NCBI GenBank assembly: GCA_964652235.1
Contig: CAZZDK010000002.1
Span: 38,675-102,674, forward strand
DNA from: an uncultured Rhodospirillaceae bacterium
GTDB taxonomy: Bacteria; Pseudomonadota; Alphaproteobacteria; UBA9219
Reading direction: 5' to 3'
DNA length: 64,000 nt
This document shows, piece by piece, positions 5,838 through 45,596 of this stretch (positions are counted from its first letter, which is position 1; each line of letters begins with the position of its first letter). The notes beneath the pieces are model-generated. The model was not told the DNA's origin. It searched no databases and saw nothing but the letters and a program-made list of their open reading frames with translations. Made by a program: the position numbers and the translations under genes.

Positions 5838-5983
5838 GGTTTGTGTCCTCCTTTCATGCGCCATGAACGCTTCATTCGCGGCGTTTATCCACTCAATTAT
5901 GAGCAATCAGATGGCTTTCTTCGGCTTATTCCGATCATTTGATGATCGCAGCGCGGGGACGCTGGGGCGCAGGAAAATGACAT

Positions 5984-29171: not shown

Positions 29172-29182
29172 CCCATAACAGG

Positions 29183-29986
29183 CTATAATGATGCCAATTC
29201 AACAGAGAACTCCTTTGAAGCGCTACAGAAACGCCCCATAAGGCTTCTAAATCTTTCCAAACCATCCGTTGCATAAAAGGTGCTCTGACCCGCGTCTTTA
29301 GAAGTACTAATTAGCTTTTTATCAAGAAGCGCTTTTCTTGCGGTAATGGCAGTCATTTGCGCACTATCGACAAGGGAAACACCTATCGGCATTCTTTTCT
29401 GAATGTTTTTCGATAAAATTGGAAAGTGAGTGCATCCTAAAACCAACGTGTCATAGTCCTCTGTTTTAATTGAATTCAGGTATCGTTGTATTGCCGCGTC
29501 AGCAGCTTCTGTTTCATCCCACCCTTCTTCCGCTAGAGAAACGAGGACATTGCACCCCATGCCCTCGACATGCGCCGTCGGGAGAATTTCTTTAAGTGCA
29601 ACTTCATAGGCTTTGGAACGAATGGTGCCTTCTGTCGCCCAGACAACGATGCGCTTATTTCGGCTTTTCGCCGCTGCCGCCTGCGCACCCGGAGAAATGA
29701 CGCCGACACAAGGTAGGTCAGGCCAATAACGACGTATCGCTTTGAGGCCATGCGCAGTTGCAGTATTACAGGCCACCACAAGCATCTTAACATTTTTTTG
29801 CACGAGCATGTCTGCAATTTCTAGGCAGTACCGCTCAACGGTTTGGGGGGGCTTAGTGCCATACGGAACACGCGCCGTATCACCGACGTATATATAATTT
29901 TCACAAGGCATTAGATCGCGCATAGCGCTATAAACTGTCAAACCGCCAACACCAGAGTCAAAAACACCGATAGCTGCTTGTCCCAT
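29183..29986 (-). CDS. murI: Glutamate racemase
   Basis: N-terminal IGVFDSGVGGLTVY signature and CNTA catalytic Cys region; AT-rich gene. Confidence 0.75.
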   Translation of the reverse strand: MGQAAIGVFDSGVGGLTVYSAMRDLMPCENYIYVGDTARVPYGTKPPQTVERYCLEIADMLVQKNVKMLVVACNTATAHGLKAIRRYWPDLPCVGVISPGAQAAAAKSRNKRIVVWATEGTIRSKAYEVALKEILPTAHVEGMGCNVLVSLAEEGWDETEAADAAIQRYLNSIKTEDYDTLVLGCTHFPILSKNIQKRMPIGVSLVDSAQMTAITARKALLDKKLISTSKDAGQSTFYATDGLERFRSLMGRFCSASKEFSVELASL

Positions 29987-30049
29987 GTTATAGTTTCCTT
30001 GTGTAAAACCTTTGTTTTCAAAAGCCTATGTTTTTTGCTCTTAGCATCT

Positions 30050-30853
30050 TTATTGTATCGGAGATAAAGCATATCCATACTTTGCTTGGCTTGTTCTTCC
30101 GTTGTTTTTCATCCTACTTAGAGTGTATTCATGGAGCTGGTTTCCGATGTCAAAATGCCAAAACTCATTCCGATAATTTGTAAACCCAACTGCGGTCATT
30201 ACACTGTGTAATGTGCGACGGTTTACAAGGCGTGGATCATGAATACAAATCTCACGCGCAGCAAGTCGCTCCTCGAAGAATGCCGTGTGGCTAACAACTG
30301 ACATCTCATCAAAATGCGCGCCCATATTTAGTAAACGAGATGTTTTTTTATCTCTCAGAAGAACATCAACCGATCCACCTGTAATATGTGTCGGCCACGT
30401 GGCCGGATTTTCTGGGCTAAAAGAGTCCGGGTCCGATACATACTGGACGACTTCACGATACACTTGTTCGTTCCGAGCAAAAGGATTCTCTTGCCGTACC
30501 CTAGCCCAGAAAAAATCCCAAATCCCTTTCTGACACGTCAATGGCCTGTATCCATCGACAACAAACAATTCGATTCCGATTGAGGCCAAAACATAATCAA
30601 CCACGGCTAACCGCTCCGCAGCCTCTTTTCTAACCCATACGGAGGGCAGCGCTCCAGATATTGGCTTAAAGTACGGGGCATTTTCTCCATCTGTTCGGGC
30701 ATAGTAATTTTCGCTGGCAATGCCATAGGCCCCAACATCTACTAATGACTCAGAGAATTGCGGGTGGTTCAAATCTACAGACACCGTTCTATAATTTCCT
30801 GTGTCTTCACTATTTTCATAAATTGGAACCGCGCTTGAAATAAAGCCGTTCAT
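30050..30853 (-). CDS. D-alanyl-D-alanine dipeptidase, VanX/DdpX-like (peptidase M15D)
   Basis: VVDGYRPLTCQKGIWDFFW, zinc-ligand-like H/D segment THITGGSVDVLL, and EFWHFDIG resembling the VanX EWWH catalytic Glu/His motif. Confidence 0.6.
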   Translation of the reverse strand: MNGFISSAVPIYENSEDTGNYRTVSVDLNHPQFSESLVDVGAYGIASENYYARTDGENAPYFKPISGALPSVWVRKEAAERLAVVDYVLASIGIELFVVDGYRPLTCQKGIWDFFWARVRQENPFARNEQVYREVVQYVSDPDSFSPENPATWPTHITGGSVDVLLRDKKTSRLLNMGAHFDEMSVVSHTAFFEERLAAREICIHDPRLVNRRTLHSVMTAVGFTNYRNEFWHFDIGNQLHEYTLSRMKNNGRTSQAKYGYALSPIQ

Positions 30854-30873
30854 GTTATTCCTTTCTTGGATCG

Positions 30874-31542
30874 TTACAAATCTCTTCTAAAAACTTGCCT
30901 AATTTTATCCGTCAGATCTCTCATCGGGGCATGATTTTTAGAAAGGCTTGACCAGTTAATTTCAATCAAATTCCCAGAGAAAGAACGATCCACTTCATCA
31001 ATCGATGCCCAGTGATTTTCCCAATTCCAAGATAAGTGGCTGCTCGGATGATGACAGCGGAGACTCTTGATCTTGCCGTCCTGATAGCGAACCCCATTAA
31101 ATAGAATTAAGTGCCCCCCTTTCCCAATTGTCCTGCCGTCCTCATCCTTCTCTCCACCACGCAAGCCGACAGCGACAGAAACAATGCAAACGTTTCCATG
31201 ACTTATAATTTTAGCAATTGTATCTGCGCCAACATTCCGATGGCATTGGCCAGAAACGCCATATTTTGACAAGAGACGAAGCAACCCAGCGTGTATCCAG
31301 CCCTTATCGCAATAAGCCTTCTCTGCAAGACCTTCATTGAGAAGCTCCCACGTTGTTTTTCCGAAACTCTCTTGTTGCAGTTCCTTCACGCCGGACACAA
31401 GCATCTTTACACAAGCAATGCCGCAGGCACGGGGGGACCAATGTCTTGCTTCCTCTTCTGTTGGGCCGCGCTCTGAATCAACCTCAATGATCTGAGAGAA
31501 GAACGGAATCCCCTCAACTACATCTTCTTTACTATTCTGCAT
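30874..31542 (-). CDS. Papain-like/C39-like cysteine peptidase-fold protein
   Basis: Candidate catalytic Cys in SPRACGIACVKML and His in GGHLILFNG as in Peptidase_C39_2/BtrH-like folds; assignment tentative. Confidence 0.35.
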   Translation of the reverse strand: MQNSKEDVVEGIPFFSQIIEVDSERGPTEEEARHWSPRACGIACVKMLVSGVKELQQESFGKTTWELLNEGLAEKAYCDKGWIHAGLLRLLSKYGVSGQCHRNVGADTIAKIISHGNVCIVSVAVGLRGGEKDEDGRTIGKGGHLILFNGVRYQDGKIKSLRCHHPSSHLSWNWENHWASIDEVDRSFSGNLIEINWSSLSKNHAPMRDLTDKIRQVFRRDL

Positions 31543-32499
31543 TTATCCCCCGAGTTTTGCTGTGTGTAAGAGCCAATTAACAACGTGACTTTGTTCATAA
31601 CCGATGCTTTTGGCAGAAGGAACGGAAATGCCATAGTTCCTTCCAAGGCTCGGATATGAGTTAGCCTCAAGAAAATATAAGCCCTTCTCCGTTTGAAGAA
31701 AATCCACTCTTAAAAGCCCATTAAATCGAAGCATTTCGTATGCGGCTCGTGAAAAAGCCTCCAATGCGGTTTGTTCTTTGGGCGAAACGTTTGCTGGTAC
31801 CTCCATCTCAACAGAATGGGACGTTCTTTTTGCTTCTTCATCAAAAATCGCAAACCCATTCTGGAGTGTAATTGAAACTGGAGGCAGAACCGTTACCGCA
31901 ACGCCATCATTCTGCCGAATAATTGGAACGGAGATTTCAACGCCTTTAAGATATGGTTCAACCATAAAAGAACCGTATGTTTTTATAAGTTTGCTTGCCG
32001 ATGCTTCGGCTTCGGCCTCCTCACGAACAAACACAACATCCTGGCCGCCGCCGCCATTCGTTGGTTTGATGATATATCCGTCCTTGTGCTTTCGGCGCAT
32101 AAACGTCCACAAATCAGCAACGCTAGAACAAAGCGTATCAGGTATTGTCAAAATGCCCGATCCGGTCAGCATTTTCTTTGTCAGCATTTTATTTGCGGTC
32201 ATATATGATGAGAACTTACGCGGCCCTGAATAAGGAACGCCAAGCGTTTCAAGAGAATCTCGTAAATCAAACTCTCTGTCTGTTCCCCTGTAATAGGGAT
32301 CTAACAAAAGGGCTTTCCCAGCGTTATGCCGCAGGCGCCCCCAGTTATGGGGAGGAATTGCATATGCCGGAATAATCTCATTCGGTTGATTTTGTATTGT
32401 GAGACATTCAGAAACTTGTTGCGAGACCTCTTCAAGATCTTCTCTCTCAGTTTCTGATCCTGCGTAAATTATATATACTTTGCTCATAATTTTCCTCAC
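31543..32499 (-). CDS. D-alanine--D-alanine ligase family ATP-grasp enzyme (paralog 2)
   Basis: ATP-grasp motifs YIIKPTNGGGGQDVVFV, EPYLKGVEISVPII, RVDFLQTEKGLYFLEANSYP; Ddl-like N-terminus IIYAGSETERE. Confidence 0.6.
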   Translation of the reverse strand: MRKIMSKVYIIYAGSETEREDLEEVSQQVSECLTIQNQPNEIIPAYAIPPHNWGRLRHNAGKALLLDPYYRGTDREFDLRDSLETLGVPYSGPRKFSSYMTANKMLTKKMLTGSGILTIPDTLCSSVADLWTFMRRKHKDGYIIKPTNGGGGQDVVFVREEAEAEASASKLIKTYGSFMVEPYLKGVEISVPIIRQNDGVAVTVLPPVSITLQNGFAIFDEEAKRTSHSVEMEVPANVSPKEQTALEAFSRAAYEMLRFNGLLRVDFLQTEKGLYFLEANSYPSLGRNYGISVPSAKSIGYEQSHVVNWLLHTAKLGG

Positions 32500-33428
32500 A
32501 TGGGCAAGCGGATTTTCTTTAAAAGAAAGGCAACTAGTTCGTCGTAAGTACGCCCTGAAGCCTTCCAGATAGAGGCTAGGTTCCCTGCCTCAGAAAGACC
32601 GGGAACAGTATTTGCTTCAAGCAAATATGCTTGACCCTGCGCGTCAACAAGATAATCGAATCTAACGACTGCGTCACACCCCATAGCTCCATACATTTTA
32701 GCTGATGCCTCACGGACAGATTTTTCAGAATCAGCTGAAATCTCAGACGGCAGGATGTACCGACGTTTATTTTCATTATGTTTGATTTCGTAATCGTATA
32801 GAGCCCCGTCAAAACGCACCTCTAAGAGAGGAAGCGTTATATCGATCTCGGGTTCGCCCGTTATCGCACAGGTGACAAACGAACCATCGATAAACTCTTC
32901 GACGATATATGGTTCATATTTTCTATCACGACTATCAATTTTGTCTTCCAGTTCCTTCAAACTCGATACAATTTCGACCCCACGGCTTCCGCCTCCATAA
33001 ATAGGTTTAAGAATATACTTTTTGTTTTCTTCTGCAGAAAGGACGGGGAGATTCATGTGCGCCTTCGTTGCTTCGAGACGATTAAGAACCCCCGGCGTTA
33101 GAACATTTAATGAGTGCGCCAAGGCTTTAAAACGCAACTTGTCAAACCCAACAATATGAGCATAAGGACGGGAGAAGTTATAGGGAATACCATTTACTTC
33201 ACAAAATGAAGAAAGGGCACCATCCTCTCCATTTTTTCCATGCATGCTGTTAAAAACGACAGATTGCGGCGACGCCTTCAAATCGTGGTCTTTTAAAGGA
33301 AATTCAATCAATCGATTAGGAACCCCGCGTCTGTCTAGCGAGCGAGCGACTGTTGCTGCGGAAATGATAGACCCCTCACGTTCCCAGCTCTCTCCTCCAA
33401 AAACTACAAGTACTGTGCTATTCATCAT
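32496..33428 (-). CDS. ddl: D-alanine--D-alanine ligase family enzyme (paralog 1)
   Basis: VLVVFGGESWEREGSIISA, HGKNGEDGALSSFCEVNGIPY, RFDYLVDAQGQAYLLEANTVPGLSEAG - classic Ddl signatures; ATGA overlap with paralog 2. Confidence 0.75.
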   Translation of the reverse strand: MMNSTVLVVFGGESWEREGSIISAATVARSLDRRGVPNRLIEFPLKDHDLKASPQSVVFNSMHGKNGEDGALSSFCEVNGIPYNFSRPYAHIVGFDKLRFKALAHSLNVLTPGVLNRLEATKAHMNLPVLSAEENKKYILKPIYGGGSRGVEIVSSLKELEDKIDSRDRKYEPYIVEEFIDGSFVTCAITGEPEIDITLPLLEVRFDGALYDYEIKHNENKRRYILPSEISADSEKSVREASAKMYGAMGCDAVVRFDYLVDAQGQAYLLEANTVPGLSEAGNLASIWKASGRTYDELVAFLLKKIRLPM

Positions 33429-33531
33429 CTGTCTTCTCCTTTTTAGATATAGTTCACCCGTTCACTAATCTCGTGTTTCGAGAAAAGCGTTTTAGAAAAT
33501 TCTTAAATGCCCTATTGCCTTCAGAAGGCTA

Positions 33532-33738
33532 TTAAGGGCTTCGCTGAAGACAAAGCCTATTGTAACCGCCTTTTTTGTTTATTTCTTCAGCCTCCTGCCT
33601 CGTGAGAGGGGCTGGATCTGTGCAACAATAAATGCTCGGCGGGCAAATTGCTCCGCAGGCGATGCAATCCCCTTCAACCACAGCAACAATGTTTTGTACT
33701 GAACGCTTGATGTCTTCATTTTTATCTATTTTCGTCAT
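33532..33738 (-). CDS. Cys-rich small protein (68 aa)
   Basis: Motif EGDCIACGAICPPSIYCC (CxxCxxxCP...CC); between MurF-like and Ddl genes in the operon. Confidence 0.3.
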   Translation of the reverse strand: MTKIDKNEDIKRSVQNIVAVVEGDCIACGAICPPSIYCCTDPAPLTRQEAEEINKKGGYNRLCLQRSP

Positions 33739-33753
33739 TTTTCCTCCTTAAAA

Positions 33754-35226
33754 TTATAAACTCGGACACGTGGAACAATGAATGTATTTGCTGCAACTTA
33801 CTTTGTCGCAGGCACTTTTCTTTCCCTCCATAAACAAGGCAACGCGCTCAAGATGCGAAAAACGTGAGCCTTTAATGAAGATGCAGGTGTTAGCCGGAAT
33901 CTCCTTTCCGGCTAGAATCTGGACAGCTTCGCCCCACTTTTCTACAATCGATATTTTATCAAGAGAAAACTGCGACATCTTGGCCGCTTCTCGCCATGTT
34001 TCCCCTGTTTCTCCTACACAAATTATTGCCCCATCAATCTCGCGTGTGGCCTTCAATATTTGAACATATGAGTCCAAAATAAAGTCGCCTACCTCTCTCA
34101 AATCGCCGAGGACCAGAATTGCGTTTTCTCCCGTCTCTCGAATGAGATTGATCCCGTTCAAAACGGAAGCGACGCTTGCGTTATAGGTATCATCTATAAC
34201 CCGCCCAGAAGGGAACGAAGATATGCGCAGGCGGCTTTCAGCTTTCCCGTTTGTAAGGGCGCTTGCTATTGTTTTCGGGTCTATCCCAGCGGCGATTCCA
34301 ACAGACACAGAAGCAAGGCAAGCGTACATTGTACCTTGGTCGCTAGGTTCAACTGATATATTGACCTCGCCCTTGGGGGTTTGGATTGAGAGGTTCTGAC
34401 TGTTTGAAATGATCTCTTTCTTTTGCATCCTGACATCGGCAAGCTCACCTGTGCCGAACCACAAAACTTTCCGGTCCGCCCCTTCCAAAGCCCCCTTTAG
34501 CGAGGCCAAGCTCTGATCATCGGCATTAAGTACAGCAATCCCATTCGGACGCAACTTGTCCAATAGCTTGGCTTTTTCCTTTAGGATAACCTCTATAGAC
34601 CCAAATCTTCCAACATGGGCAAGGCCGATATTCGTTATCACGGCAATATCAGGCAAAATTGTTCCAGCAAGCCATTCCATTTCACCGGGCGTGTTGATGC
34701 CAACCTCAATGCAAGCAAACTTTGTATCTTCGTTGATATTCACCAAAGTCAGGGGAATACCGAATTCGTTGTTGAAACTCTTTTTGCTGAACACCGTCGG
34801 AGCGATTTCGGAAAAAGAGCTACCTATATGGTTCTTGGTTGTTGTTTTGCCGACACTTCCCGTTACGGCAACCGTTAACGGATTATAGTGCTCACGGATT
34901 GTGCGTGCGAGTGCATGTAAGCAAAGCAACGAATCTTGAACATGCATAATTCTAGGGTCTTCAAGTTCCAAGAAATCTTCATTAACTACAGCAAGCGCTG
35001 CTCCAGCATTAAGCGCCGCCGCAACATAGGCATGGCCGTCAAGATTCTTTCCTTTGACGGCAAAAAATACTTCACCTTCTCTTATAGAGCGTGAATCGAT
35101 GCTTACACCCAAGAAGTCTTGATCAAGCACAGCGCCAAAACTTTCAGTTTGCAGCTTTCCTAGGTAATCAGAAAACAGATTTTTCAATGTTAACATCGTC
35201 GTTCCTTGCTTTGTTTGTGTGGTCAT
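33754..35226 (-). CDS. Mur ligase, MurF-like (UDP-N-acetylmuramoyl-tripeptide--D-alanyl-D-alanine ligase family)
   Basis: N-terminal MurF signature DSRSIREGEVFFAVKGKNLDGHAYVAAALNAGAALAVV, P-loop TGSVGKTTTK; unusual Cys-rich C-terminal tail ACDKVSCSKYIHCSTCP. Confidence 0.7.
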   Translation of the reverse strand: MTTQTKQGTTMLTLKNLFSDYLGKLQTESFGAVLDQDFLGVSIDSRSIREGEVFFAVKGKNLDGHAYVAAALNAGAALAVVNEDFLELEDPRIMHVQDSLLCLHALARTIREHYNPLTVAVTGSVGKTTTKNHIGSSFSEIAPTVFSKKSFNNEFGIPLTLVNINEDTKFACIEVGINTPGEMEWLAGTILPDIAVITNIGLAHVGRFGSIEVILKEKAKLLDKLRPNGIAVLNADDQSLASLKGALEGADRKVLWFGTGELADVRMQKKEIISNSQNLSIQTPKGEVNISVEPSDQGTMYACLASVSVGIAAGIDPKTIASALTNGKAESRLRISSFPSGRVIDDTYNASVASVLNGINLIRETGENAILVLGDLREVGDFILDSYVQILKATREIDGAIICVGETGETWREAAKMSQFSLDKISIVEKWGEAVQILAGKEIPANTCIFIKGSRFSHLERVALFMEGKKSACDKVSCSKYIHCSTCPSL

Positions 35227-35323
35227 AGTCTTTTGTTGTAGACTCTATAACCTTAGTCCTATATTTGCCCATACCCTTCTTTAAGGCATAATGGCGGCTT
35301 TTTCTTGTTGCCGCAGCTGGCCT

Positions 35324-35878
35324 CTAATGTATTGAGTAAAGCCTATATTTTTCCTTTCCATATTGCGTTTCTTCATTGTGCTCTTCTTTAATTTCTTCTG
35401 ACATTAACGCCCTCTTCGCAGCTCGAATTATGCGAGCATAAAGCGACTGAGGCGGCCCGTTCTTTCCAAGAAAGCTCTTCATACTAACAAAACAAGGCGG
35501 GGCCTCTGGATGCAATGCGCTTGCTTGCTTTTCTGCAACCCGTCCAACATAAACTATTGTTTGTGCCGATATAAACGGACCTCCCTCTTGTGTGAGGATC
35601 GTGACTGGGGCCATCGGGCCGATACAAACTTTTGTTGTCTCCAAGACCTCGCGCCGCGCTGCGGCTTCTGCATCGTCGTCGCCCCACTCAACACGTCCGC
35701 CCGGCAGAGCAAAACGGTCTGCATTCTTAATCATCAGCACACGGTCCTGATCATCAAAAACTACGACCTTGACGTACTTTGGTTCGCTTTTGGACAACTT
35801 TCCGATCTGCGTCTTTCCGAACAGGGCATCAGCTGCCGTCTGTTGTTTAGCTTTAGGCATAACGCGCCCCCCGTTCAT
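35324..35878 (-). CDS. NUDIX hydrolase
   Basis: Nudix box GGRVEWGDDDAEAAARREVLETTKV. Confidence 0.6.
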   Translation of the reverse strand: MNGGRVMPKAKQQTAADALFGKTQIGKLSKSEPKYVKVVVFDDQDRVLMIKNADRFALPGGRVEWGDDDAEAAARREVLETTKVCIGPMAPVTILTQEGGPFISAQTIVYVGRVAEKQASALHPEAPPCFVSMKSFLGKNGPPQSLYARIIRAAKRALMSEEIKEEHNEETQYGKEKYRLYSIH

Positions 35879-36125
35879 GAGGATAACCCGTATCAGTTGT
35901 ACGACGATTAATCTCTAAAGCAGCCAAAGCATTAGCGAAGTGCCAGAGAGAAGCTATGTCCTGATGGGTAAAGCCTTTTGCGATCAGGTCTTGTTGTGAG
36001 CAGTCTCCCAACGCTAATGTCGTTTCGACAATTGCATCTGCCATGTGTGCGACTGGCTCAAACCTTTTATCTGTTTTGGTCGTGATCTGATCTACAATAA
36101 GACGATGGCGAACGGCCTTAGTCAT
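35853..36125 (-). CDS. Hypothetical protein
   Basis: ORF only; overlaps neighbours in operon. Confidence 0.3.
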   Translation of the reverse strand: MTKAVRHRLIVDQITTKTDKRFEPVAHMADAIVETTLALGDCSQQDLIAKGFTHQDIASLWHFANALAALEINRRTTDTGYPHERGARYA

Positions 36126-36501
36126 TATTTGCCTCCTTGGTTTCGGAGACAGAGACAGTCATGCGGGAAATCCAAGCATGAGAAAATACTAGGGTGCTTT
36201 CCGCTTGGCCGCTTTCGGCAGGAATAGAAACCATGGACTCCTGCTGGACAAACTGGATGCCATGTCGTTCAAAAGTTTTGACAAGCGTTTTGATCGTGTC
36301 TTCCTTGGGCGAATAAATTCCATGTTCGATATTTTTGATTGTTTCCGCCGATAACTTGGCTTCCTTGGCGAGATCGCTGCGCGACCAGTCAAGCATGCTG
36401 CGCGCTGCGCGCAATTGCGACGGGCCAATCGGGCAATCCTTGATTTGCGGCTGAAAAGTTTCATTTTTGAATATGGCTGCTTCCACTCGTGAGAGGCTCA
36501 T
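36118..36501 (-). CDS. XRE-family HTH transcriptional regulator
   Basis: HTH QLRAARSMLDWSRSDLAKEAKLSAETIKNIEHG; N-terminal region paralogous to 37477..38145 and 39013..39663. Confidence 0.5.
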   Translation of the reverse strand: MSLSRVEAAIFKNETFQPQIKDCPIGPSQLRAARSMLDWSRSDLAKEAKLSAETIKNIEHGIYSPKEDTIKTLVKTFERHGIQFVQQESMVSIPAESGQAESTLVFSHAWISRMTVSVSETKEANND

Positions 36502-36959
36502 TGGTAGCCTCCCGCTTTTCTGTCCTCGATTTCCTCATCAAGGTATTTCAGCACCAGATCAGCCAGCTGCTCGTTCGAAGCCTCCGCATAGAACAACCAT
36601 TGCTTCCGGCGCGTCTTACGCTGCTGGAGGCGATCATAAAATTGAATCAGAGTTTCCCGATCTTCGGGCAGCTGCGTTTCTTCGCGCTTTTGTAGTTCCT
36701 CAATGTGCATGTTGAGTGCTGCGTCAACCTTCGTTGCCCACTTGTCTTCGGCAAGGGCGAGGTCCTGTGCAGGAAATGTCTGTTTCAGGTGCAGATTGCA
36801 AAACTCGTCCATGAGTTTCGCAAGGGCGACAATTTTCTGAGTGGCTTCTTTCGATTTGGCGTTCTCGCCCTGTGAAATCATGCTCTGAAACGCCAGCATA
36901 AGGCAAAGGCGCGCGGGAAGATTATCATGCGTCATGGTTGCGTCCCCGCTTGTTATCAT
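36498..36959 (-). CDS. Hypothetical protein
   Basis: ORF only. Confidence 0.3.
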   Translation of the reverse strand: MITSGDATMTHDNLPARLCLMLAFQSMISQGENAKSKEATQKIVALAKLMDEFCNLHLKQTFPAQDLALAEDKWATKVDAALNMHIEELQKREETQLPEDRETLIQFYDRLQQRKTRRKQWLFYAEASNEQLADLVLKYLDEEIEDRKAGGYQ

Positions 36960-37254
36960 TCGACCACAGCCCGATTAGCACCTTGGCCAACCGTCCAAGG
37001 AGGTTCAGGTCTTCTTCGGATGGATCTGGCAGAGGCGTGTTGGCACAGCGAAGGAATGTTATGCCGTGGCTTGTTATCGTCTGCATAAACTCCGTGCGGG
37101 CTTCGTCGGAAGAAAAGTTATCCTGAATCACGACGCCAACGGTGGGATCTGGATACGCGGATGAGAGCGTTTCGACATTCTGTGTATCGTTCATGAGCAG
37201 AGCCGATGTCTTCATTGTGCGCTTCATAAGAACCCCGTTGATTGCGTCCAACAC
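36925..37254 (-). CDS. Hypothetical protein (first gene of long leftward operon)
   Basis: ORF only. Confidence 0.3.
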   Translation of the reverse strand: MLDAINGVLMKRTMKTSALLMNDTQNVETLSSAYPDPTVGVVIQDNFSSDEARTEFMQTITSHGITFLRCANTPLPDPSEEDLNLLGRLAKVLIGLWSNDNKRGRNHDA

Positions 37255-37417
37255 ATGAGTTCAAATGCCGTAATTCCGCGCACAGAAACCACAGCTATTT
37301 TTTCCGCTTTTCTCCCTATAACGGGGAGTTTTTAGGCAAATTCAGATGGGTTCCCGTTTTTCTGCCAGTTGCAGGGAGTTTTCCATCCAAGCCTCCCTTG
37401 ATAGGGGAGGCTTTTGA

Positions 37418-37449
37418 CAAAAAAATACGCGCCAATTTGCGATTGGCGC
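37418..37449 (-). terminator. Rho-independent terminator for gene 37477..38145
   Basis: Minus-strand hairpin GCGCCAAT-CGCAA-ATTGGCGC followed by TATTTTTTT; an adjacent second hairpin GCCTCCC-TTGATAG-GGGAGGC + TTTT (37391-37415) reads as a plus-strand terminator. Confidence 0.5.
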
Positions 37450-37476
37450 GTTAGGTCTTCGGGGGAAGAAATTGAT

Positions 37477-38145
37477 TTAAGTTCGTTCTTTGCTTTCAAT
37501 AGTTAGAGGCAAAGCATTGTCCCACATTTCCGAAAAATGGGCTCTCTCGTTAAGCGAAATGTCAGTAGAGGTTATAACATAATACCAAAATTCATTACTG
37601 CTTGTCATAAAAATGAAGGCATGTTTGTTTCCACATTGCAGGGTCGACCAAATGCCGACAGTCGGCATAGCGGTCGCTCTCATCTGAATACTCGGCACAA
37701 CGAGTGAAGAATTGCGCGCATCCGTCAAAAGACATCTGACGTCGGCATATTTGCTCAGGTTCGTCAACCGTTCAAGATTGGCGTGATTAGCGACGCCAAG
37801 CGAAGCGGCCATCTGCTCAGCTGTTTTATATATGGCAAGCATTTCCCCGCCGTGTTCTTTGGCGGCGACGAGCATGTCTTCATAGAATTGCTCTGTTCCT
37901 TCGGGGCCGCTGTATTTCTTGGCTTCGTGGTTATTGAGAACAACGCCGCGTGTGCCAACGAACTCCACACCTTTCTTTTCAAGGCTTCTACGGATTTCGA
38001 CTAGCCGCGCCAACGAAATCTTTTCACCTTTCTCGAATTTGGCGACTGTTTTAGGCGAGACACATGAGGCCAAGGCCAAATCGTCTCGCGTCCAGTCCAG
38101 CAAACTGCGCGCCGCTTTAATTTGCCCGGGGCTAATTGCGTACAT
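37477..38145 (-). CDS. HTH regulator with C-terminal domain of unknown function (paralog of 39013..39663)
   Basis: N-terminal HTH QIKAARSLLDWTRDDLALASCVSPKTVAKFEKG; shared GGEML motif with paralog. Confidence 0.5.
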   Translation of the reverse strand: MYAISPGQIKAARSLLDWTRDDLALASCVSPKTVAKFEKGEKISLARLVEIRRSLEKKGVEFVGTRGVVLNNHEAKKYSGPEGTEQFYEDMLVAAKEHGGEMLAIYKTAEQMAASLGVANHANLERLTNLSKYADVRCLLTDARNSSLVVPSIQMRATAMPTVGIWSTLQCGNKHAFIFMTSSNEFWYYVITSTDISLNERAHFSEMWDNALPLTIESKERT

Positions 38146-38167
38146 TTCTTGCCTCTGTCCTTCAAAA

Positions 38168-38599
38168 TCAGTTCACTAATTTTTTCATTTCTAAATCGAC
38201 TAAGAATTCGATGGCGTTCTGGTAAAGCCGCGATGGCAGAGCTTTAACTTCACTTACATCGAAATGTGCTGTTAGAATCTCACAGACAGTCGTCTCATCA
38301 ACTTTTTGGTTGTAGGCTACATAAGTGATCATGCTGCAGATTGCTTGCATCTCTATGTCGTTCAATGGCTTTTCATGCGCCTTGCGTAGCGCGGCAAGAC
38401 CGGAGGTCAAGAGGCTCAGGTCCCTGACGGAAAGGTCTCTACATTCCGTAGCCTCGTTTGTGGTTTCGTTGGCGACGTTCATGGGGTGGGGCTTGTTGCT
38501 CATCGGTTGCTCCTTAAACAGTAGCCGTAGGAGCTGGGGCGGGATGGCAATTGACAAAATCATTGGTGGCGGAAATAAAATGTTCCCAGCGTTCTTCAA
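38168..38599 (-). CDS. Hypothetical protein, member of 3-copy paralog family
   Basis: C-terminal motif VCEILTAHFDVSEVKALPSRLYQNAIEFLVDL shared with 41211..41492 and 41571..41900. Confidence 0.35.
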   Translation of the reverse strand: MKNAGNILFPPPMILSIAIPPQLLRLLFKEQPMSNKPHPMNVANETTNEATECRDLSVRDLSLLTSGLAALRKAHEKPLNDIEMQAICSMITYVAYNQKVDETTVCEILTAHFDVSEVKALPSRLYQNAIEFLVDLEMKKLVN

Positions 38600-38708
38600 G
38601 CATCATTGGGCGTTCATGACGGACATTGTTGTCGCGTTCCCACATCTCGACAATATACTGGATCAGGCTCTCACTATGCTTCTTTGTAATCGTGTCGAAA
38701 TCGAGCAT

Positions 38709-39012
38709 TTTAATCTCCCCAATATGTCCTTATGATTGAAAGGCGCCCCACGCTTCTCGATTTCAAGCCGTCAAATGCAATTTCCTGAAACCGTATATGC
38801 AATGTAATTTGTTTCTAACCCGAAAGCAATACATTTCTCACCTAGTAAAGGTGGAAAATGCACTATATCATACCTAAAATAGGTTGATTCCTACCAAAAA
38901 AAGGTAGAGTCATCAAGAAAGCAATAAAATTACGAAAGCATTTTGCACCTTTTAATGGTGGAGAAAGTATTGTATGGTACGCTCATGATAGTCGATAAAG
39001 GATAAATTAACC
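38709..39012. promoter_or_regulatory. AT-rich divergent promoter/operator region
   Basis: Between leftward 38168..38708 genes and rightward 39013 HTH gene; contains adjacent hairpin-type sites TACCTAAAATAGGT and TACCAAAAAAAGGTA and three GCAATnnAnTT direct repeats. Confidence 0.4.
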
Positions 39013-39663
39013 ATGAAGCTAACTGGTCTCCAAATCGCCGCCGCCATTACACTATCAGGGCTAACAAGAGAAGCCTTGGCAAACGAGGCGGGCGTTGGCC
39101 GCAACACGATAGATAGAATTATCAACGAAACCGCTGCGTGCCGCGAAGATACAATACGCAAAATCACAGACATTCTTGAAGTACGCGGCATTGAGTTTTT
39201 GCCAGGCGAAGGCGTTCGCAAAAAAGAGCAAACTGTTACAACGCTTACTGGAGACGACTGCCTTCAAGAGCTTCTGTTGGATGTATACCGGACTCTGCAA
39301 GATAGGGGCGGCGAAATGCTTATCGCGCATTTGGACGAAGGAAGCGCAGCAAGAAGCTTAAAAAAAGAATTCTTGGATGAACAAATTCGCAAACGCAAGG
39401 TGGCAAATATAACTTGCCGCTTGCTCGTTCGAGCAGATGATCCGAATCTTATTCCCCCTTATGACACCTATCGGGCAATACCTGACGAGTCATTCTCTCC
39501 ATATCCGTTTTACATTTATGGATCGAAGTTAGCCCTTTTGTCTTGGAAGCCGGAGCCGCGCGTAATCATAATTGACGATCAGCGTTTTGCCCATAGTGCT
39601 GCAAAGCTATTTGATATTGCATGGAACACAGGTAAAGAAATCATTCGAAACGAGAAGAAATGA
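39013..39663 (+). CDS. HTH regulator (paralog of 37477..38145)
   Basis: N-terminal HTH LTREALANEAGVGRNTIDRIINE; stop overlaps downstream start (ATGA). Confidence 0.5.
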   Translation: MKLTGLQIAAAITLSGLTREALANEAGVGRNTIDRIINETAACREDTIRKITDILEVRGIEFLPGEGVRKKEQTVTTLTGDDCLQELLLDVYRTLQDRGGEMLIAHLDEGSAARSLKKEFLDEQIRKRKVANITCRLLVRADDPNLIPPYDTYRAIPDESFSPYPFYIYGSKLALLSWKPEPRVIIIDDQRFAHSAAKLFDIAWNTGKEIIRNEKK

Positions 39664-40700
39664 CAATGTTTTCAGCTTATATGCATGAACTTGATTTTGA
39701 AGAATGGCTCGAACAAAGCCAATATGTCGAGCGCATTAATGATGCCAATATTTCTCGCCTTACAAGACTTTTAGCCTCGGAGATAGACGTCGACAGTTAT
39801 GCGGTTTCTCCCGCATATTATGCCTATACAGGAAGACGGGGGCTGTGGCTTTATCATTATGACGGAACCTTTCTTCCGATGTGCTGGCATCCCAACGTCG
39901 AGGGGCAGATGTTAGTTTTCCCGCCGCGTGGGCAGAAGAATTACGCTGCAGTCACAGCGTTACTAAACGAAGCTCCCTCACCGCCGCGAGGATTTCTTCT
40001 AGCGAGATTTAAACCTCAAGAGATAGGCCAGCTTAAAACGCTTTATGCCTTTGTTAGCCGCGTATCTTTCGAGCCCATTGAGGAAGAGGTTCTCGATTGG
40101 CGTTATCCAGCGAGGATTTTATCCACACTTAATACCACTCAAATGCTTGGGCATGAATATATGCTTATCCGAAACCGCGTCCGCCAAACGAAGAAATATA
40201 CGGTGGATACAGAACGCCTTTCGCTCAAACATATTCCAGAGATTGAGCGTCTCGCTTTGCGCTGGGCCAACAAGCAAGCCGAGAACCCTGAAGAACTTAT
40301 CGATCTAGTTACCCCCTATAAAGAAACTTTGCGTCTCTACAAACAGAGAGAACTTGGGCTTGATGGCTTGGTGTTTATTGTCGACGGCCAGATTCAGGCG
40401 ACAACAATATGGGACATCTCAAACCCTGAACACAAGATAGCCAATCTGTATATGAACCTGTGTAATGTTTCCTATCGAGGGTTGTCTGAATTTTCAATCA
40501 AAGCAACGGCAGCAATATTGTGTGAAAAGGGCGTTCCGCTTCTCAATCTTGGAGGATCTGAAACGGCCAGCCTAGATCATTATAAAAATAAATTTTCGCC
40601 AGCCATAAGCGTTCATCTTTGCTCACTAGAGGCTGGTGTAGCTATGATGCCGAATATTGCTGGCACACTCCCTGTTGAAAAGGAGCTTAGAGTAGCTTAA
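39660..40700 (+). CDS. Enzyme-like protein of unknown function (possible GNAT/Fem-like or DUF2156-like fold)
   Basis: 346 aa translationally coupled to HTH gene; weak resemblance to acyl/aminoacyl-transferase folds; not confirmed. Confidence 0.25.
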   Translation: MTMFSAYMHELDFEEWLEQSQYVERINDANISRLTRLLASEIDVDSYAVSPAYYAYTGRRGLWLYHYDGTFLPMCWHPNVEGQMLVFPPRGQKNYAAVTALLNEAPSPPRGFLLARFKPQEIGQLKTLYAFVSRVSFEPIEEEVLDWRYPARILSTLNTTQMLGHEYMLIRNRVRQTKKYTVDTERLSLKHIPEIERLALRWANKQAENPEELIDLVTPYKETLRLYKQRELGLDGLVFIVDGQIQATTIWDISNPEHKIANLYMNLCNVSYRGLSEFSIKATAAILCEKGVPLLNLGGSETASLDHYKNKFSPAISVHLCSLEAGVAMMPNIAGTLPVEKELRVA

Positions 40701-41149
40701 TGCCAAAATTAAAACGATCCCAGCTCAAAGTCGGCAACACTATCGAGCCGGACGGGTTTCCTCCGGGCCGGATAGTAACGATTGAGAAATGCACACTTGA
40801 GAGCTTCATCGATGGAAAGCGGAAAAAGCGGTGGCCTTGTTGGACGGTTCGCACCGACGCTCCGCGACCTCTGCACAAATACCTTATTTGCGATCTCGGC
40901 AAAATAGACGGCCTCATTCTCTGGAGAAAGTCAGAGATAAAGTTTGCGCCTAAAGACGCAAAATTATGGGTTGAACGCAGCGGACTTGAGGAAATGGAGA
41001 ATATTACCGGCAATGGGCCAGATAGTTTTATCTATTCAATGCTTGTTTACATTCTTGATCACAAGAGCAAACAGCCTAGCAAATTCTATCTTATAGAAAG
41101 AATGCGTGATGCCAGAATCTTCCGGTACGAAGGATTTCGTGTTGGATAA
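40700..41149 (+). CDS. Hypothetical protein
   Basis: ORF only; start overlaps upstream stop. Confidence 0.3.
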   Translation: MPKLKRSQLKVGNTIEPDGFPPGRIVTIEKCTLESFIDGKRKKRWPCWTVRTDAPRPLHKYLICDLGKIDGLILWRKSEIKFAPKDAKLWVERSGLEEMENITGNGPDSFIYSMLVYILDHKSKQPSKFYLIERMRDARIFRYEGFRVG

Positions 41150-41210
41150 ATTCGCGGCCACATCGAAATGTTGCCTTCTTTGTTTGACGCGCATTATCGC
41201 GGCTCTAGCC

Positions 41211-41492
41211 TCAACTTTTTGCTGCAGCGCTTGACTTAACAATGCCCTCAAGAAACTTTGTCACAGCCCCAAGATCCTTTGCGGGGATATGGCTTAAATC
41301 GCCAACACCGAAAACCCGCTGGGTAATTTCAAAGATTTCCGCTTCCTCGCTTTTCATTTCGCCAGAAACCTGACGGATGAGCATGGAAAGCGTGTGCGCT
41401 TCCTTGGGAGTAAGCGTTCTGGTAAGCCCGCTACTTTGATTAGAATCTTTCGCCTTAAAGGGAAGAATATTTGATGTCGTATTTTCTTCCAT
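41211..41492 (-). CDS. Hypothetical protein, paralog family member
   Basis: C-terminal IFEITQRVFGVGDLSHIPAKDLGAVTKFLEGIV. Confidence 0.35.
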   Translation of the reverse strand: MEENTTSNILPFKAKDSNQSSGLTRTLTPKEAHTLSMLIRQVSGEMKSEEAEIFEITQRVFGVGDLSHIPAKDLGAVTKFLEGIVKSSAAAKS

Positions 41493-41570
41493 GCCATACC
41501 CTCTTTACAAAACGCCCCAATGCAACATCCCTATTGCACCGTTAATGCGGCCCGAATTCATTGTAAAGGC

Positions 41571-41900
41571 TCAGTTCTTTGTGTCGCTTGAGCCCGTAAA
41601 GTCAACAAGAAAGCCAATCAGGTCATTGAAGGCCGCCAAGGGTATGTCCTCAATTTTTGAGGCACCGAACGTCTTACATGTCATCTGAATAATTTCGGCC
41701 CCTTCGATTTTCAGATTGTAGGATAGATATGAGATCAATGCATAAGCGGCTTTGATTTCTTTCTCCCCTAGCTTTCTCGCAGGATCGCTGGCAAAGGTTG
41801 ATGCAGGGGTTCTTATCTCGCCCGGAATAGCGTCTGCAGAAAATTCTTTGCTCATTGCTGTATATCCTTTGCTGAAAAAGATTTTAACCAGCTGCCGCAT
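41571..41900 (-). CDS. Hypothetical protein, paralog family member
   Basis: C-terminal IIQMTCKTFGASKIEDIPLAAFNDLIGFLVDF. Confidence 0.35.
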   Translation of the reverse strand: MRQLVKIFFSKGYTAMSKEFSADAIPGEIRTPASTFASDPARKLGEKEIKAAYALISYLSYNLKIEGAEIIQMTCKTFGASKIEDIPLAAFNDLIGFLVDFTGSSDTKN

Positions 41901-42185
41901 TGTACCAGAAATGGGTGCCTTTCTTCAAAACTTGCATGGCCCACGGTCGTCCTAACATGAGTGCAGCATGAGAGCACTTTGGGAGCAAAGTATGGGTGCA
42001 AACCGATAACGATTTGAAAGTGAACGCAGAAAACCGAAGGGAAATGGAAAAAGCCTATACGGTTTTGCAAGGAAATGGCTAAAAATGGCGCGTTTGTGTC
42101 AGATAAAAACGAAAGTGGTTGCCATTGTCTGGGAATGCGCGTAAAAGGAGATTATCGTTCTAAATCAATGGGGTAATGCTTTTCC

Positions 42186-42230
42186 TTGGTAAGGACGGGG
42201 TCGTAGGTTCAATTCCTATCGGCAGCACCA
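42186..42230 (+). other. 3'-terminal fragment of a tRNA gene (T-arm GGTTCAATTCC + acceptor 3' strand + CCA); probable att-site remnant
   Basis: GTAGG-TTCAATT-CCTAT T-arm followed by CGGCAGC-A-CCA; no complementary 5' acceptor strand or D-arm upstream, so not an intact tRNA. Confidence 0.5.
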
Positions 42231-42402
42231 GTTTTACAATAAAATCAGTAAGCTTTCCCGAATGTTCCGATCACCTCATCGGCGCAAATATGCAGAACTT
42301 TGCAAGAACGTCGGCCAAAAGTGGGGGAAAAGTGGGGGAAGATAAAGAGATCCGAAAAAAGGCGGTACCCTTGCAGATACCGCCCCTTCCATACAAAAAC
42401 GT

Positions 42403-42681
42403 CTATCGGCTTGTTACTGCCCAAACAAGAGGTCCATCGCCTTTAGCCGCGTTGTTTTGCCAGTGCAGTGGTTGAAGGTTACTAATATGATCAGAACCGC
42501 CCAAATTTACAGGCCTTATATGATCAATTTCCCAACCAAACTCGCTTTCACGGTTTCCGTAGTCCGTCCTTTTAATCCATGCCCCGCAAATATCCTTGCG
42601 TAATCCTTGGATTTCCTTGTCCGGACCGACATAAGCCGCTTTCGCCCAAACTTGATTTACTTGTTCTTGAGTAAAGGCCAT
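42403..42681 (-). CDS. HNH endonuclease (92 aa)
   Basis: EIDHIRPVNLGGSDHISNLQPLHWQNN - HNH motif. Confidence 0.6.
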   Translation of the reverse strand: MAFTQEQVNQVWAKAAYVGPDKEIQGLRKDICGAWIKRTDYGNRESEFGWEIDHIRPVNLGGSDHISNLQPLHWQNNAAKGDGPLVWAVTSR

Positions 42682-42866
42682 GTTTTTTCTCCTTTCGTTG
42701 TAAGCGTCAAGAACAGCCGAAAAATCGGGAAGCCTTGTTCTTGACTGGACAAAAACAAAAGGAGGGACTAAACTATGCCTACCGCTAGGTTGGTGAAGCC
42801 CCTCCTTATTGAGGCTTCGTCAATAACGTAAAGCCGCGCATCCCTTATGGGGCGCGGCTTTATTTG

Positions 42867-43316
42867 TTAAGGAGACGAAGAATTTTTTTGTTTTTTCTTC
42901 CTTTCTTCTCCATCTGTTAAATCAATGATAATCCAGTTTTCCATGTGTCCTTCTTTTGCAGGATACATGGTGGTGTCTTTAGGCTTAATGTTGTAATATG
43001 ACAAAAAGCTCTTTCCAGCTATGTCGGCTCCAAACTTCCTTAAACGCAAATTAATCCCTCCTTCGGCATTCTTATCTTTTGAAAATTCAAAACCAATTCT
43101 TCCTTCTTCTTTATCATAGTACAGCGTACAAACCGCGTATTTTTCTAATGAAAAACGCCGCCTTGTGCCTTGATTAAATCCTATTAATCCGTTGCGACTA
43201 ATAGATATTTTTGGGGTAAAAGACCGTCCCCCGCCTGTAAATTTTTCAAAGCCCATGAGATTCTCCATTTCTGATATTGAAAGAATATTCATGATCGGAG
43301 AGTTTGTCAATAACAT
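42867..43316 (-). CDS. Hypothetical protein (AT-rich)
   Basis: ORF only; Lys-rich C-terminus. Confidence 0.3.
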   Translation of the reverse strand: MLLTNSPIMNILSISEMENLMGFEKFTGGGRSFTPKISISRNGLIGFNQGTRRRFSLEKYAVCTLYYDKEEGRIGFEFSKDKNAEGGINLRLRKFGADIAGKSFLSYYNIKPKDTTMYPAKEGHMENWIIIDLTDGEERKKKQKNSSSP

Positions 43317-43761
43317 TGTTGTATACTAAACCCAGTTATGGTTAAAAAACATTAACAAACTTATTGTGCGAACCATTTTCTATCTTACTTGTCATCACTC
43401 ACCAAGCCTCGGCAACCGTTTCCCCGCCTCCCTTACGACCTCAATATCCCTGACGTTCTCCCCATCTTCGGGGCAATTTGATTTAGAGTCTTTGGGATAA
43501 AATAGCCATGTCTGGGGCTAAGGGCAAACGGCAGGCTGCTCGACCGCAAGAGTCGAGAGCAGACTGGCGCGATAGGGACCTTATATCACTGGTCTAATTT
43601 TTGGGGGCAGCTCACTAACTCAATTTCTGAGCCCAGCACCTAATATTTTCTTAAAATTAAGGGCTAAGCGTGTTTTTTTGCCGGTTATACGGGCCAATTA
43701 TATATATTATGTTAATCTTGCCCTTGTACTTTCCAGAGAGAACTTTAGACAAAATCGGTCC

Positions 43762-45487: not shown

Positions 45488-45596
45488 CAAAAACTTCTCT
45501 TCCGTTTTAGAATCCTTTTGCCGGGGTATCCCTTTTTGGGATTGAGAACAGACCCGTTGAACCTGATCTGGCTCATACCAGCGAAGGGAGCTTTTC

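Follow-up and report, generated by a model that had tools for sequence, protein, structure and literature searches.

A mobile cassette of MurF-, Ddl- and VanX-like enzymes in the cargo island of a prophage, with a putative Van-like role in cell-wall precursor chemistry

The DNA analysed here is a stretch of 64,000 nt (the window) from an uncultured Rhodospirillaceae bacterium (assembly GCA_964652235.1, contig CAZZDK010000002.1, positions 38,675 to 102,674). It contains the right part of a prophage, in which a low-GC island directly follows the lysis genes (Table 1). The island is largely occupied by one leftward operon of 12 minus-strand open reading frames (ORFs), running from 37254 down to 29183. 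In order of transcription, these ORFs encode a 109-aa product, a 153-aa product, a 127-aa helix-turn-helix (HTH) protein of the XRE type, a 90-aa product, a Nudix-domain protein, a MurF-like ligase, a 68-aa cysteine-rich protein, two Ddl-family ligases (Ddl1 and Ddl2), a C39-like peptidase, an M15 peptidase and a glutamate racemase (MurI). The gaps between neighbouring ORFs, counted from the murI end, are 63, 20, 0, −4, 103, 15, 97, −26, −8, −4 and −35 nt, in agreement with the tightly packed leftward operon that had been proposed from the letters and ORFs of this stretch (hereafter the original prediction). The enzyme and small-protein genes of the operon are referred to as the cassette, and other loci, contigs and protein relatives are named by our own handles (L003, P0005 and the like).

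The composition of the DNA changes abruptly at the left border of the island. The GC content is 0.563 at 1–29171, 0.461 at 29172–42232, 0.414 at 42233–43400 and 0.577 at 43700–64000. The GC content of third codon positions (GC3) is 0.65 in the phage genes (minimum 0.56), 0.68 in the host genes and 0.43 in the cassette genes (maximum 0.48), and the ranges do not overlap; the codon composition of the cassette is foreign to phage and host alike. The shift near 29180 that the original prediction had noted was therefore confirmed by windowed GC and by GC3, the kind of check it had proposed.

On the left, the endolysin matches phrog_873 (E 5.8e-63) and is followed by two overlapping ORFs that we read from their sequences as i-spanin- and o-spanin-like, the second carrying the lipobox LSAC. 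The last of them ends at 29171 and murI ends at 29183, leaving 11 bp, and a search of the window that allowed up to 3 mismatches found no copy of the attachment site (att) between them. On the right, the 45-nt att core occurs once in the window. The same 45 nt, with no additional matching base on either side, are present in the 35.8-kb viral contig IMGVR_UViG_3300010885_020387, whose flanks are unrelated. This segment is taken as the att core because it reads as the 3′ end of a tRNA and because the identical 45-mer stands between different flanks in a viral contig. ARAGORN and Rfam found no complete tRNA in the window, that viral contig has no tRNA either, and Rfam made no call on the att fragment, so that the reading as a tRNA 3′ end draws on the sequence itself and on the identical 45-mer. 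Since the island is bordered by the att core on its right and no att copy is found at the spanin–murI junction, the island (29172–42230, approximately 13 kb) is cargo within the att-delimited prophage. The left attachment site (attL) and the integrase are located beyond the left edge of the window, and the full element extends outside the stretch. A tandem-element model, in which an att copy would separate the prophage from the island, was ruled out by the lack of a second att within 3 mismatches.

The original prediction had let the island end at approximately 43400–43760, which did not hold, as the element ends at the att core and the low-GC DNA from 42231 to approximately 43400 lies outside. 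This DNA probably remains from another element that had used the same integration site. It contains an ORF for a 92-aa HNH endonuclease (42403–42681, −) and a 149-aa ORF (42867–43316, −; GC 0.36), neither of which has a phage family match.

To the left of the island, the PHROGs matches comprise DNA methyltransferases, TerS, TerL, portal, tape measure, tail protein and endolysin. TerL shares 59% identity with that of Rhodobacter capsulatus siphoviruses of approximately 41 kb, whose gene order is the same, and by these TerL relatives the prophage is of alphaproteobacterial type; megablast of the prophage against deposited phages gave no match. In RcKemmy, the slot behind the lysis genes holds approximately 3 kb of small accessory ORFs, followed by leftward early genes. 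The island occupies this post-lysis accessory slot of the phage lineage at approximately four times the size found in RcKemmy. The relatives measure approximately 41 kb, and the window already contains 42 kb of prophage without early genes or integrase. The whole element is probably larger than 50 kb, and its packaging as a whole may be precluded.

These sizes also bear on the alternative that the island is not phage cargo but an independent island or decayed integrative element at the same tRNA site, or host-adjacent DNA gained through aberrant excision. An insert of this length would take a ~41-kb genome type beyond 50 kb, no island integrase was found in the window, further low-GC DNA lies beyond the att core, and at a related locus (L089) the Ddl1, Ddl2 and C39-like genes adjoin core genes. 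Such an origin is nevertheless quite unlikely: the last spanin ORF and murI are no more than 11 bp apart, with no att copy between them, the sole att core of the window is found on the right side of the island, and a second public sample (L088) carries the identical prophage–island junction. The foreign GC3, the operon's own terminator and regulators, the position of att, the RcKemmy slot and the presence of the cassette on other mobile elements uphold the earlier suggestion of a regulated accessory module acquired by the phage, although its extent was overstated by the DNA beyond att and its encoded content had gone unrecognised.

Table 1. Features of the prophage end and of the island in the window (aa, amino acids; scores are given against the cutoff of the respective model)
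Feature	Position	Strand	Details
Phage lysis genes, left border of the island	28110–29171	+	Endolysin 28110–28772; spanin-like ORFs 28688–29011 and 28851–29171; from PHROGs and translations
Glutamate racemase (MurI-type), last gene of the operon	29183–29986	−	267 aa; TIGR00067 245.8 bits, cutoff 146.65
VanX-like M15 D,D-dipeptidase (putative)	30050–30853	−	267 aa; Pfam Peptidase_M15 76.1 bits, cutoff 27
C39-type papain-fold cysteine peptidase (putative)	30874–31542	−	222 aa; cytoplasmic (no signal peptide)
Ddl2, divergent Ddl-family ATP-grasp ligase	31543–32499	−	318 aa (probably 314 aa, internal ATG); Pfam Dala_Dala_lig_C E 2e-18
Ddl1, Ddl-family ligase	32496–33428	−	310 aa; Pfam Ddl N and C domains; 199 bits, Ddl cutoff 243
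Orphan five-Cys mini-protein	33532–33738	−	68 aa
MurF-clade Mur ligase	33754–35226	−	490 aa (480 aa from the second ATG); TIGR01143 314.6 bits, cutoff 288.6
Nudix-domain protein	35324–35878	−	184 aa; Pfam NUDIX 45.1 bits, cutoff 21.1
Operon-proximal genes	35853–37254	−	90 aa 35853–36125; XRE HTH 127 aa 36118–36501; 153 aa 36498–36959; 109 aa 36925–37254
Tandem 32-nt repeat	37301–37382		Copies 37301–37332 and 37351–37382; 75% identity, 50-bp spacing, short hairpin in each copy
Intrinsic terminator closing the 222-aa HTH gene	37427–37451	−	10-bp stem with 6 GC pairs, then ATTTTTTTGT
XRE HTH regulator with C-terminal GGEML domain	37477–38145	−	222 aa; HTH_3 match
143-aa ORF	38168–38599	−	Probably 111 aa; small paralogue family
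Rightward three-gene unit	39013–41149	+	XRE HTH 216 aa 39013–39663; 346 aa 39660–40700; 149 aa of unknown family 40700–41149
Small paralogous ORFs	41211–41900	−	93 aa 41211–41492; 109 aa 41571–41900
att core, right end of the prophage	42186–42230	+	45 nt; tRNA 3′ end (T-arm, acceptor strand, CCA)

The MurF-like protein can be aligned over its full length with MurF structures and has the features of the family, namely three Mur ligase domains, a match to the family model, the P-loop and the catalytic invariants. With two MurF equivalog models, it scores 223 against a cutoff of 544 and 213 against a cutoff of 551. Its clade consists of nine clusters among 5.8 billion: one identical, seven at 51–63% identity and one a 771-aa MurI::MurF fusion. 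Bit scores fall from at least 421 inside the clade to 242 for ordinary MurFs (approximately 35% identity). Searches with tblastn against deposited phages and plasmids retrieved only ordinary MurFs below 36% identity. A scan of a genome collection, in which one pattern (VIDDTYNA) is a universal Mur motif, gave only housekeeping MurFs at 29–35% identity and was uninformative about the cassette.

The clade was compared with 111 ordinary MurFs over the 97 alignment columns in which these are conserved to 90% or more. It keeps the N-terminal DSR and DGH motifs, the P-loop, NN, Glu174, His204, Lys218, DD, Arg332, DxYNA, GD, Glu378 and KGSR, and every UDP-domain invariant of true MurFs. The replacements include Asn150Ser, Ile183Met, Glu220Lys, Gly296Asp, His298Gly, Pro352Val/Ala, Met376Leu/Ile, His387Tyr, Gly391Leu and Leu450Phe, several of them in the C-terminal part. 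The clade also ends in a tail with four cysteines, CxxxxCSKYIxCxxC (the Cys4 tail), which ordinary MurFs do not have. Because the UDP, P-loop and catalytic invariants are kept and C-terminal invariants are replaced, we infer that the nucleotide-peptide and ATP side of the enzyme is conserved and the side of the incoming substrate altered. A lone member of the Cys4-tail clade (51% identical) is located beside a GHMP-kinase gene on the 2.06-Mb chromosome of an Alphaproteobacteria metagenome-assembled genome (MAG; L001, CP064970.1, 10001–11461), with no other cassette gene within 10 kb. It might be the only MurF of that organism, which would bear on the capability of the clade. The Nudix-domain protein encoded upstream of the MurF-like gene has a Nudix box that we read as degenerate, and in L003 and L004, too, weak homologues precede the MurF-like gene.

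The two Ddl-family ligases are of Ddl type in fold and catalytic residues. Aligned to E. coli DdlB, Ddl1 keeps Glu15, His63, Lys215, Arg255, Asp257, Glu270 and Asn272, and in all four orthologues compared it has Ser150Gly, Glu187Phe, Tyr216His, Ser281Gly and Leu282Asn. In DdlB and VanA, the substituted positions shape the site of the second substrate. The His at the Tyr216 position, as in VanA, is a lead and not a criterion of membership. Ddl2 scores 111.8 bits, where the cutoff of the Ddl subfamily is 243; it keeps the catalytic and Mg/ATP set (Lys215, Arg255, Asp257, Glu270 and Asn272) and is changed at His63 (Tyr), Ser150 and Ser151 (Gly), Tyr216 (Arg, with Asp in the orthologues) and Ser281 (Gly). 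A role of Arg216 in binding the gamma-carboxylate of D-Glu was considered and ruled out, as the orthologues have Asp there. The single Ddl of L006 has Tyr216Phe. Neither Ddl1 nor Ddl2 combines a score above the model cutoff with the Glu15–Ser150–Tyr216 triad and Ser281 that mark a Ddl. With the Van models, the best scores are 129 bits for Ddl1 (VanG) and 58 bits for Ddl2, against cutoffs of 495–775.

The M15 protein, aligned to the VanX structure 1R44, keeps Arg71 (in GYRP), His116, Asp123, Glu181 and His184. Its equivalog scores are 57 for VanX (cutoff 320) and 68 for DdpX (cutoff 176). MurI matches Pfam Asp_Glu_race and has both catalytic cysteine motifs, ACNTA and GCTHFP; in the relative P0009, MurI is fused to a MurF-like protein. 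Judged by their residues, the cassette enzymes are catalytically intact and the residues of their substrate pockets are systematically changed.

The latter point bears on the simplest explanation, that the phage carries extra murF, ddl, murI and dipeptidase genes as plain auxiliary metabolic genes, which carry out their ordinary reactions to boost or stabilise the supply of precursors. Automated annotation does name the clade members MurF, and the MurF-like protein and MurI exceed curated cutoffs. In folds, catalytic residues and reaction types, the cassette equals the housekeeping Ddl–MurF–MurI set, but it differs from that set in its substituted pocket residues, a MurF of only ~35% identity, foreign GC3, mobility and a dipeptidase predicted to destroy D-Ala-D-Ala. 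Such a dipeptidase counters a simple boost of supply. Ddl1 and Ddl2 fall below the curated Ddl cutoffs and have conserved pocket substitutions, the MurF clade stands sharply apart from ordinary MurFs by its scores, its replaced invariants and its Cys4 tail, and an orphan small protein and a C39-type peptidase are conserved alongside. The operon also appears to be outside the lytic programme, because it converges on the phage late genes and carries its own regulators. Spare genes of ordinary function are thus an improbable explanation.

The 68-aa protein has the core EGDCIxCGxxCxPSIYCCTDPxPLTxxxAExINKKGGY, followed by a variable, cysteine-containing tail of 8–23 aa. Its ORF is found directly after the MurF-like gene in L003, L004, L005 and L006; in L089, it precedes Ddl1. 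It is considered a real gene because it is conserved behind MurF-like genes whose products are only ~62% identical. An exhaustive phmmer search of 1.84e9 representatives retrieved only approximately eight small relatives. Those that are more distant retain the five-cysteine core GDC[IV]xCGxLCPxxxYCC[TP]xPxP and lose the Gly-Gly and the tail, so that the pattern of a precursor of a ribosomally synthesised and post-translationally modified peptide (RiPP), a conserved leader before a hypervariable core, is confined to the close subfamily. No similarity was found in Pfam, PHROGs or PDB, where a profile gave only noise of the EGF-like cysteine pattern (E~0.03), and the alignment retrieved nothing from JGI metagenomes or IMG/VR. 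Its setting, a small Cys-rich protein of the metal-binding type with a flexible tail beside ATP-grasp ligases and peptidases, resembles that of the amino-group carrier LysW with its ATP-grasp ligase LysX and a releasing peptidase, a parallel that we treat only as a lead. Unlike LysW, the protein has a variable and basic tail, not a conserved acidic one of the EDWGE type, and no Pfam similarity.

The C39-like protein has the motifs CGxACxxM and GGH and a papain fold with a Gln/Cys/His catalytic set; with Pfam Peptidase_C39_2 it scores 20.4, below the cutoff of 24, and its alignment retrieved nothing from IMG/VR. Unlike LahT150, ComA and PCAT1, it is a stand-alone, cytoplasmic protein without fusion to an ABC transporter and has a long insertion between the catalytic Gln and Cys. 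No exporter partner for it is encoded in the window, and among the cassette loci only L092 has one. The small ORF and the C39-like gene occur together in the window, L003, L006 and L089. A Gly-Gly-specific peptidase beside a protein with an invariant Gly-Gly would form a coherent, putative enzyme–substrate pair.

The cassette is a rare, conserved and mobile set that is carried by phage and other mobile elements. In L003, the order is a homologue of the 90-aa product, a Nudix-like gene, MurF, a 72-aa ORF, Ddl1 (61% identity), Ddl2 (46%), C39-like (56%) and M15 (54%), and the cassette adjoins a DUF927 primase-like gene and an integrase. The P0005 contigs carry tRNA_edit, Ddl, C39-like, MurF, an 87-aa ORF and M15, with an integrase fragment nearby. 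In a Bdellovibrionales MAG (L004, JBFXDW010000090.1), a Nudix-like gene, MurF and a 72-aa ORF are followed by fragments of insertion sequences. A 45-aa HTH fragment at 5836–5973 of this locus is 93% identical to the N-terminus of the 222-aa regulator of the window. The adjoining MurF-like genes are only ~63% identical, which suggests that the regulator was recently exchanged between distant carriers. Genes for Fic and Sel1 proteins are located upstream. L007 has a MurI::MurF fusion followed by Ddl1, and in L089 the small ORF occurs together with Ddl1, Ddl2 and the C39-like gene. The locus L093 has two Ddl-like genes, a C39-like gene and an M15 gene, the last orthologous, like that of L003, to the M15 gene of the window. 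The MurF-like gene also occurs alone (L001 and P0006), as does the C39-like gene (L090 and L091).

At L092 (FWWL01004404.1, 2512–11745), an ABC ATPase, two ABC-2 permeases, a Ddl2-like, a Ddl1-like and a C39-like protein and a 339-aa unknown protein are encoded together with a pyridoxal phosphate-dependent decarboxylase of the ornithine/diaminopimelate/arginine type and a PGM1-like ATP-grasp peptide ligase (PGM1_C and PreAtp-grasp domains). This locus has no MurF and, like L093, no homologue of the small protein. It has the appearance of a biosynthetic cluster for a small peptide, so far undescribed and related to the cassette of the window. By gene content, the recurrent core is composed of Ddl1, Ddl2 and C39, and the third ligase appears interchangeable, MurF-like or PGM1-like with an exporter, because L092 has the trio with a PGM1-like ligase and an exporter in place of MurF. 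Wherever the trio is present, the MurF-like gene is always paired with the small Cys protein.

These loci give rise to the main competing explanation, in which the cassette makes a hybrid peptide natural product of a RiPP-like or carrier-borne kind. The 68-aa protein would be a precursor or carrier, which the C39-type peptidase would cut after the Gly-Gly, and the Ddl paralogues would build a D-peptide with the D-Glu from MurI. The MurF-like enzyme would then join the pieces, or attach them to a nucleotide-linked acid, thereby yielding a toxin, signal or antimetabolite, and the M15 protein would serve in self-protection or proofreading. The invariant NKKGG at the end of the conserved region, before the variable tail, and the C39 motifs agree with this scheme, as do the repeated pairing of the two genes and the grouping of Ddl2, Ddl1 and C39 with a PGM1-like ligase, a decarboxylase and an ABC-2 exporter in L092. 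A tripeptide built stepwise by two ATP-grasp ligases has precedent, and tRNA deacylases have been described as a marker of clusters for non-canonical amino acids (PMC13149037); the P0005-type cassette starts with tRNA_edit.

In biosynthetic pathways of the pheganomycin type, the ATP-grasp ligase PGM1 joins a non-proteinogenic acid to ribosomal peptides. The idea in common would be that a ribosomal peptide is freed by a peptidase and then ligated, which is putative in the window, and the relatives of Ddl1, Ddl2 and C39 in L092 do adjoin a ligase with PGM1_C and an exporter. The window differs in having a MurF-type ligase, no PGM1 and no exporter, and its ribosomal core peptide is putative. Further points stand against a hybrid peptide. 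The Gly-Gly is missing from the distant relatives of the small protein, which still have the five-Cys core, a leader with five invariant cysteines would be unusual, and an exporter or immunity gene is absent from the window, L003 and L006. The small protein has no homologue in L092 or L093, and the MurF-like enzyme retains the UDP-domain invariants in full. This explanation accounts better for the Gly-Gly/C39 pair and for L092, and worse for the conserved UDP side of MurF and the VanX-like dipeptidase; it is possible but, in our estimate, rather unlikely.

The explanation that we favour, with a probability of roughly 0.4 and hence tentatively, is that the operon is a Van-like module, which loads a non-canonical D-amino-acid peptide on UDP-MurNAc-tripeptide (MurNAc, N-acetylmuramic acid) and destroys D-Ala-D-Ala. 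MurI would supply D-Glu, and Ddl1 and Ddl2 would make a non-canonical D-amino-acid dipeptide or, stepwise, a tripeptide. The dedicated MurF-clade ligase would load this peptide on UDP-MurNAc-tripeptide instead of D-Ala-D-Ala, and the VanX-like M15 dipeptidase would break down the D-Ala-D-Ala that competes with it. The Nudix protein and the C39-type peptidase may trim or edit precursors, or process the 68-aa protein at its invariant Gly-Gly; the 68-aa protein and the Cys4 tail of MurF may be metal-binding accessories. The XRE regulators would hold the operon under its own control, apart from phage late transcription. Overall, this would amount to a lysogenic conversion of the stem-peptide terminus of the host cell wall, and a possible gain would be resistance to agents or enzymes that recognise precursors ending in D-Ala-D-Ala. 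All substrates and the physiological effect are deduced here from sequence. The functional linkage of the genes is indicated by the MurI::MurF fusion of P0009, by the gene order kept in L003, and by the M15 gene in L003, the P0005 contigs and L093.

The vanI cluster of Desulfitobacterium hafniense (vanX-murF-vanK-vanW-vanI-vanRS) contains a dedicated MurF and an aminoacyl-tRNA transferase of the Fem type and no vanH (PMC4229326), and van-like genes of actinobacteria are often co-located with murF and GNAT genes (PMC8698665). Of the documented architectures, the vanI cluster is the closest to the operon. Like these clusters, the island has an altered Ddl-family ligase, a VanX-like M15 protein and a dedicated MurF. 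Like vanI, it lacks vanH and has a protein of aminoacyl-tRNA-transferase fold nearby (the 346-aa LPG_synthase_C-like protein described below), though in a separate operon. Unlike vanI, it has two ligases, neither of which reaches any Van cutoff, and regulators of the XRE type take the place of VanRS. Additional components are MurI, Nudix, a C39-type peptidase and the orphan Cys-rich protein, and its MurF, with the Cys4 tail, falls into a tiny clade of its own. The cassette has a proteobacterial host and is carried by a prophage and, elsewhere, by further mobile elements.

Several observations weigh against the Van-like scheme. It requires neither a second ligase nor a C39-type peptidase nor a Cys-rich mini-protein, position 216 of Ddl2 is not conserved (Arg or Asp), and the MurF-like gene also occurs solitarily. 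Ddl1, Ddl2 and C39 occur without MurF at L092, in a setting with a PGM1-like ligase, a decarboxylase and an exporter that looks like a cluster for a secreted peptide. No equivalent of VanH or VanT is encoded in 29172–42230, where the glutamate racemase is the only enzyme of the supplier type, and the island has XRE-type HTH proteins and no VanRS. A clear selective benefit in a diderm host is also lacking. Because the ligases miss every Van model and VanH, VanT and VanRS are absent, the cassette is not a member of any named Van type, and it would be Van-like in its action only.

An undescribed chemistry would be a long shot. Here, the C39-type peptidase would cut the 68-aa protein at its Gly-Gly, and the MurF-like ligase, docked through its Cys4 tail, would join the ribosomal peptide, or the terminus exposed by the cut, to a UDP-MurNAc-peptide or to the D-amino-acid peptide made by the Ddl enzymes. 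If this was true, phages and other mobile elements would spread a hybrid of a ribosomal peptide and a peptidoglycan precursor, which would either be anchored in the cell wall or inhibit cell-wall enzymes as a Trojan horse.

Of the other proteins encoded in the island, the 127-aa protein matches HTH_3 and HTH_19. The 90-aa and 153-aa products match a 156-aa ORF upstream of the L003 cassette, and family libraries and PHROGs gave no other match for them and none for the 109-aa product. The tandem 32-nt repeat, placed between the start of the operon and the terminator of the 222-aa HTH gene, is a candidate operator or promoter region. The site 37451–37427 (−), directly 3′ of that gene, is the top-ranked terminator-like site in 28500–44000, and the rho-independent terminator of the original prediction was thereby recovered. 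Its three related XRE HTH proteins likewise proved paralogous: HTH127 is 36% identical to HTH222 over 70 aa and 32% identical to HTH216 over 62 aa, and HTH216 is 26% identical to HTH222 over 175 aa, an alignment that spans the GGEML-containing C-terminal domain it had ascribed to two of them.

The predicted coupling of an HTH gene to a 346-aa ORF was also found in the rightward three-gene unit, as the stop codon of HTH216 overlaps the start of the 346-aa gene (ATGA), whose own stop overlaps the start of the 149-aa gene (TAATG). The unit is absent from the other cassette loci compared. The 346-aa protein is LPG_synthase_C/DUF2156-like (Pfam LPG_synthase_C 33.2 bits, cutoff 27.5), and we take it to belong to the same aminoacyl-tRNA-transferase fold class as Fem and VanK; a single-sequence AlphaFold2 (AF2) model had a pLDDT of 34.5 and was unusable, which leaves the Pfam match. 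The 143-aa, 93-aa and second 109-aa ORFs form a three-member paralogue family by local blastp (109 to 143 aa, E 1.6e-8; 109 to 93 aa, E 1.7e-6). They have a C-terminal segment in common, and each adjoins one regulator unit. They could be anti-repressor-like proteins or partners of the XRE proteins; they have no clear family match, and the 143-aa ORF has a weak match to a PHROG of unknown function (E 0.007), beyond which PHROGs gave nothing for the island proteins. No signal peptide was found in the operon-encoded proteins. PADLOC models had no match among ten island proteins at E<=0.01, and a known anti-phage defence system was ruled out on this ground.

Two observations concern other parts of the window. 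At 1672–4051 (+), two phage DNA methyltransferase genes adjoin each other, the second encoding a fusion of a ParB-like nuclease domain and a methyltransferase (phrog_498, E 3.6e-166). In the host DNA, a thiamine pyrophosphate (TPP) riboswitch (RF00059, 70.3 bits, gathering score 54.3) is located at 45512–45606 (+), just after a GGDEF-EAL gene (43670–45487) and just upstream of a 255-aa ORF (45597–46364).

Temperate phages are known to alter host surfaces. In the searchable literature, we found no description of this cassette and none of a phage-borne, self-regulated module that rewrites the cytoplasmic peptidoglycan precursor. In either case, the cassette is small and well defined, with a handful of sequences among billions. 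If a hybrid peptide is its product, a Mur ligase would have been recruited to the chemistry of peptide natural products or protein modification, together with a new family of five-Cys proteins. If the Van-like reading is true, precursor editing of the van type would circulate on phages and other mobile elements in Proteobacteria, with new ligase specificities in the His216/Gly281 class of Ddl and the Tyr387 class of MurF, and a virus may rewrite the cell-wall chemistry of its host.

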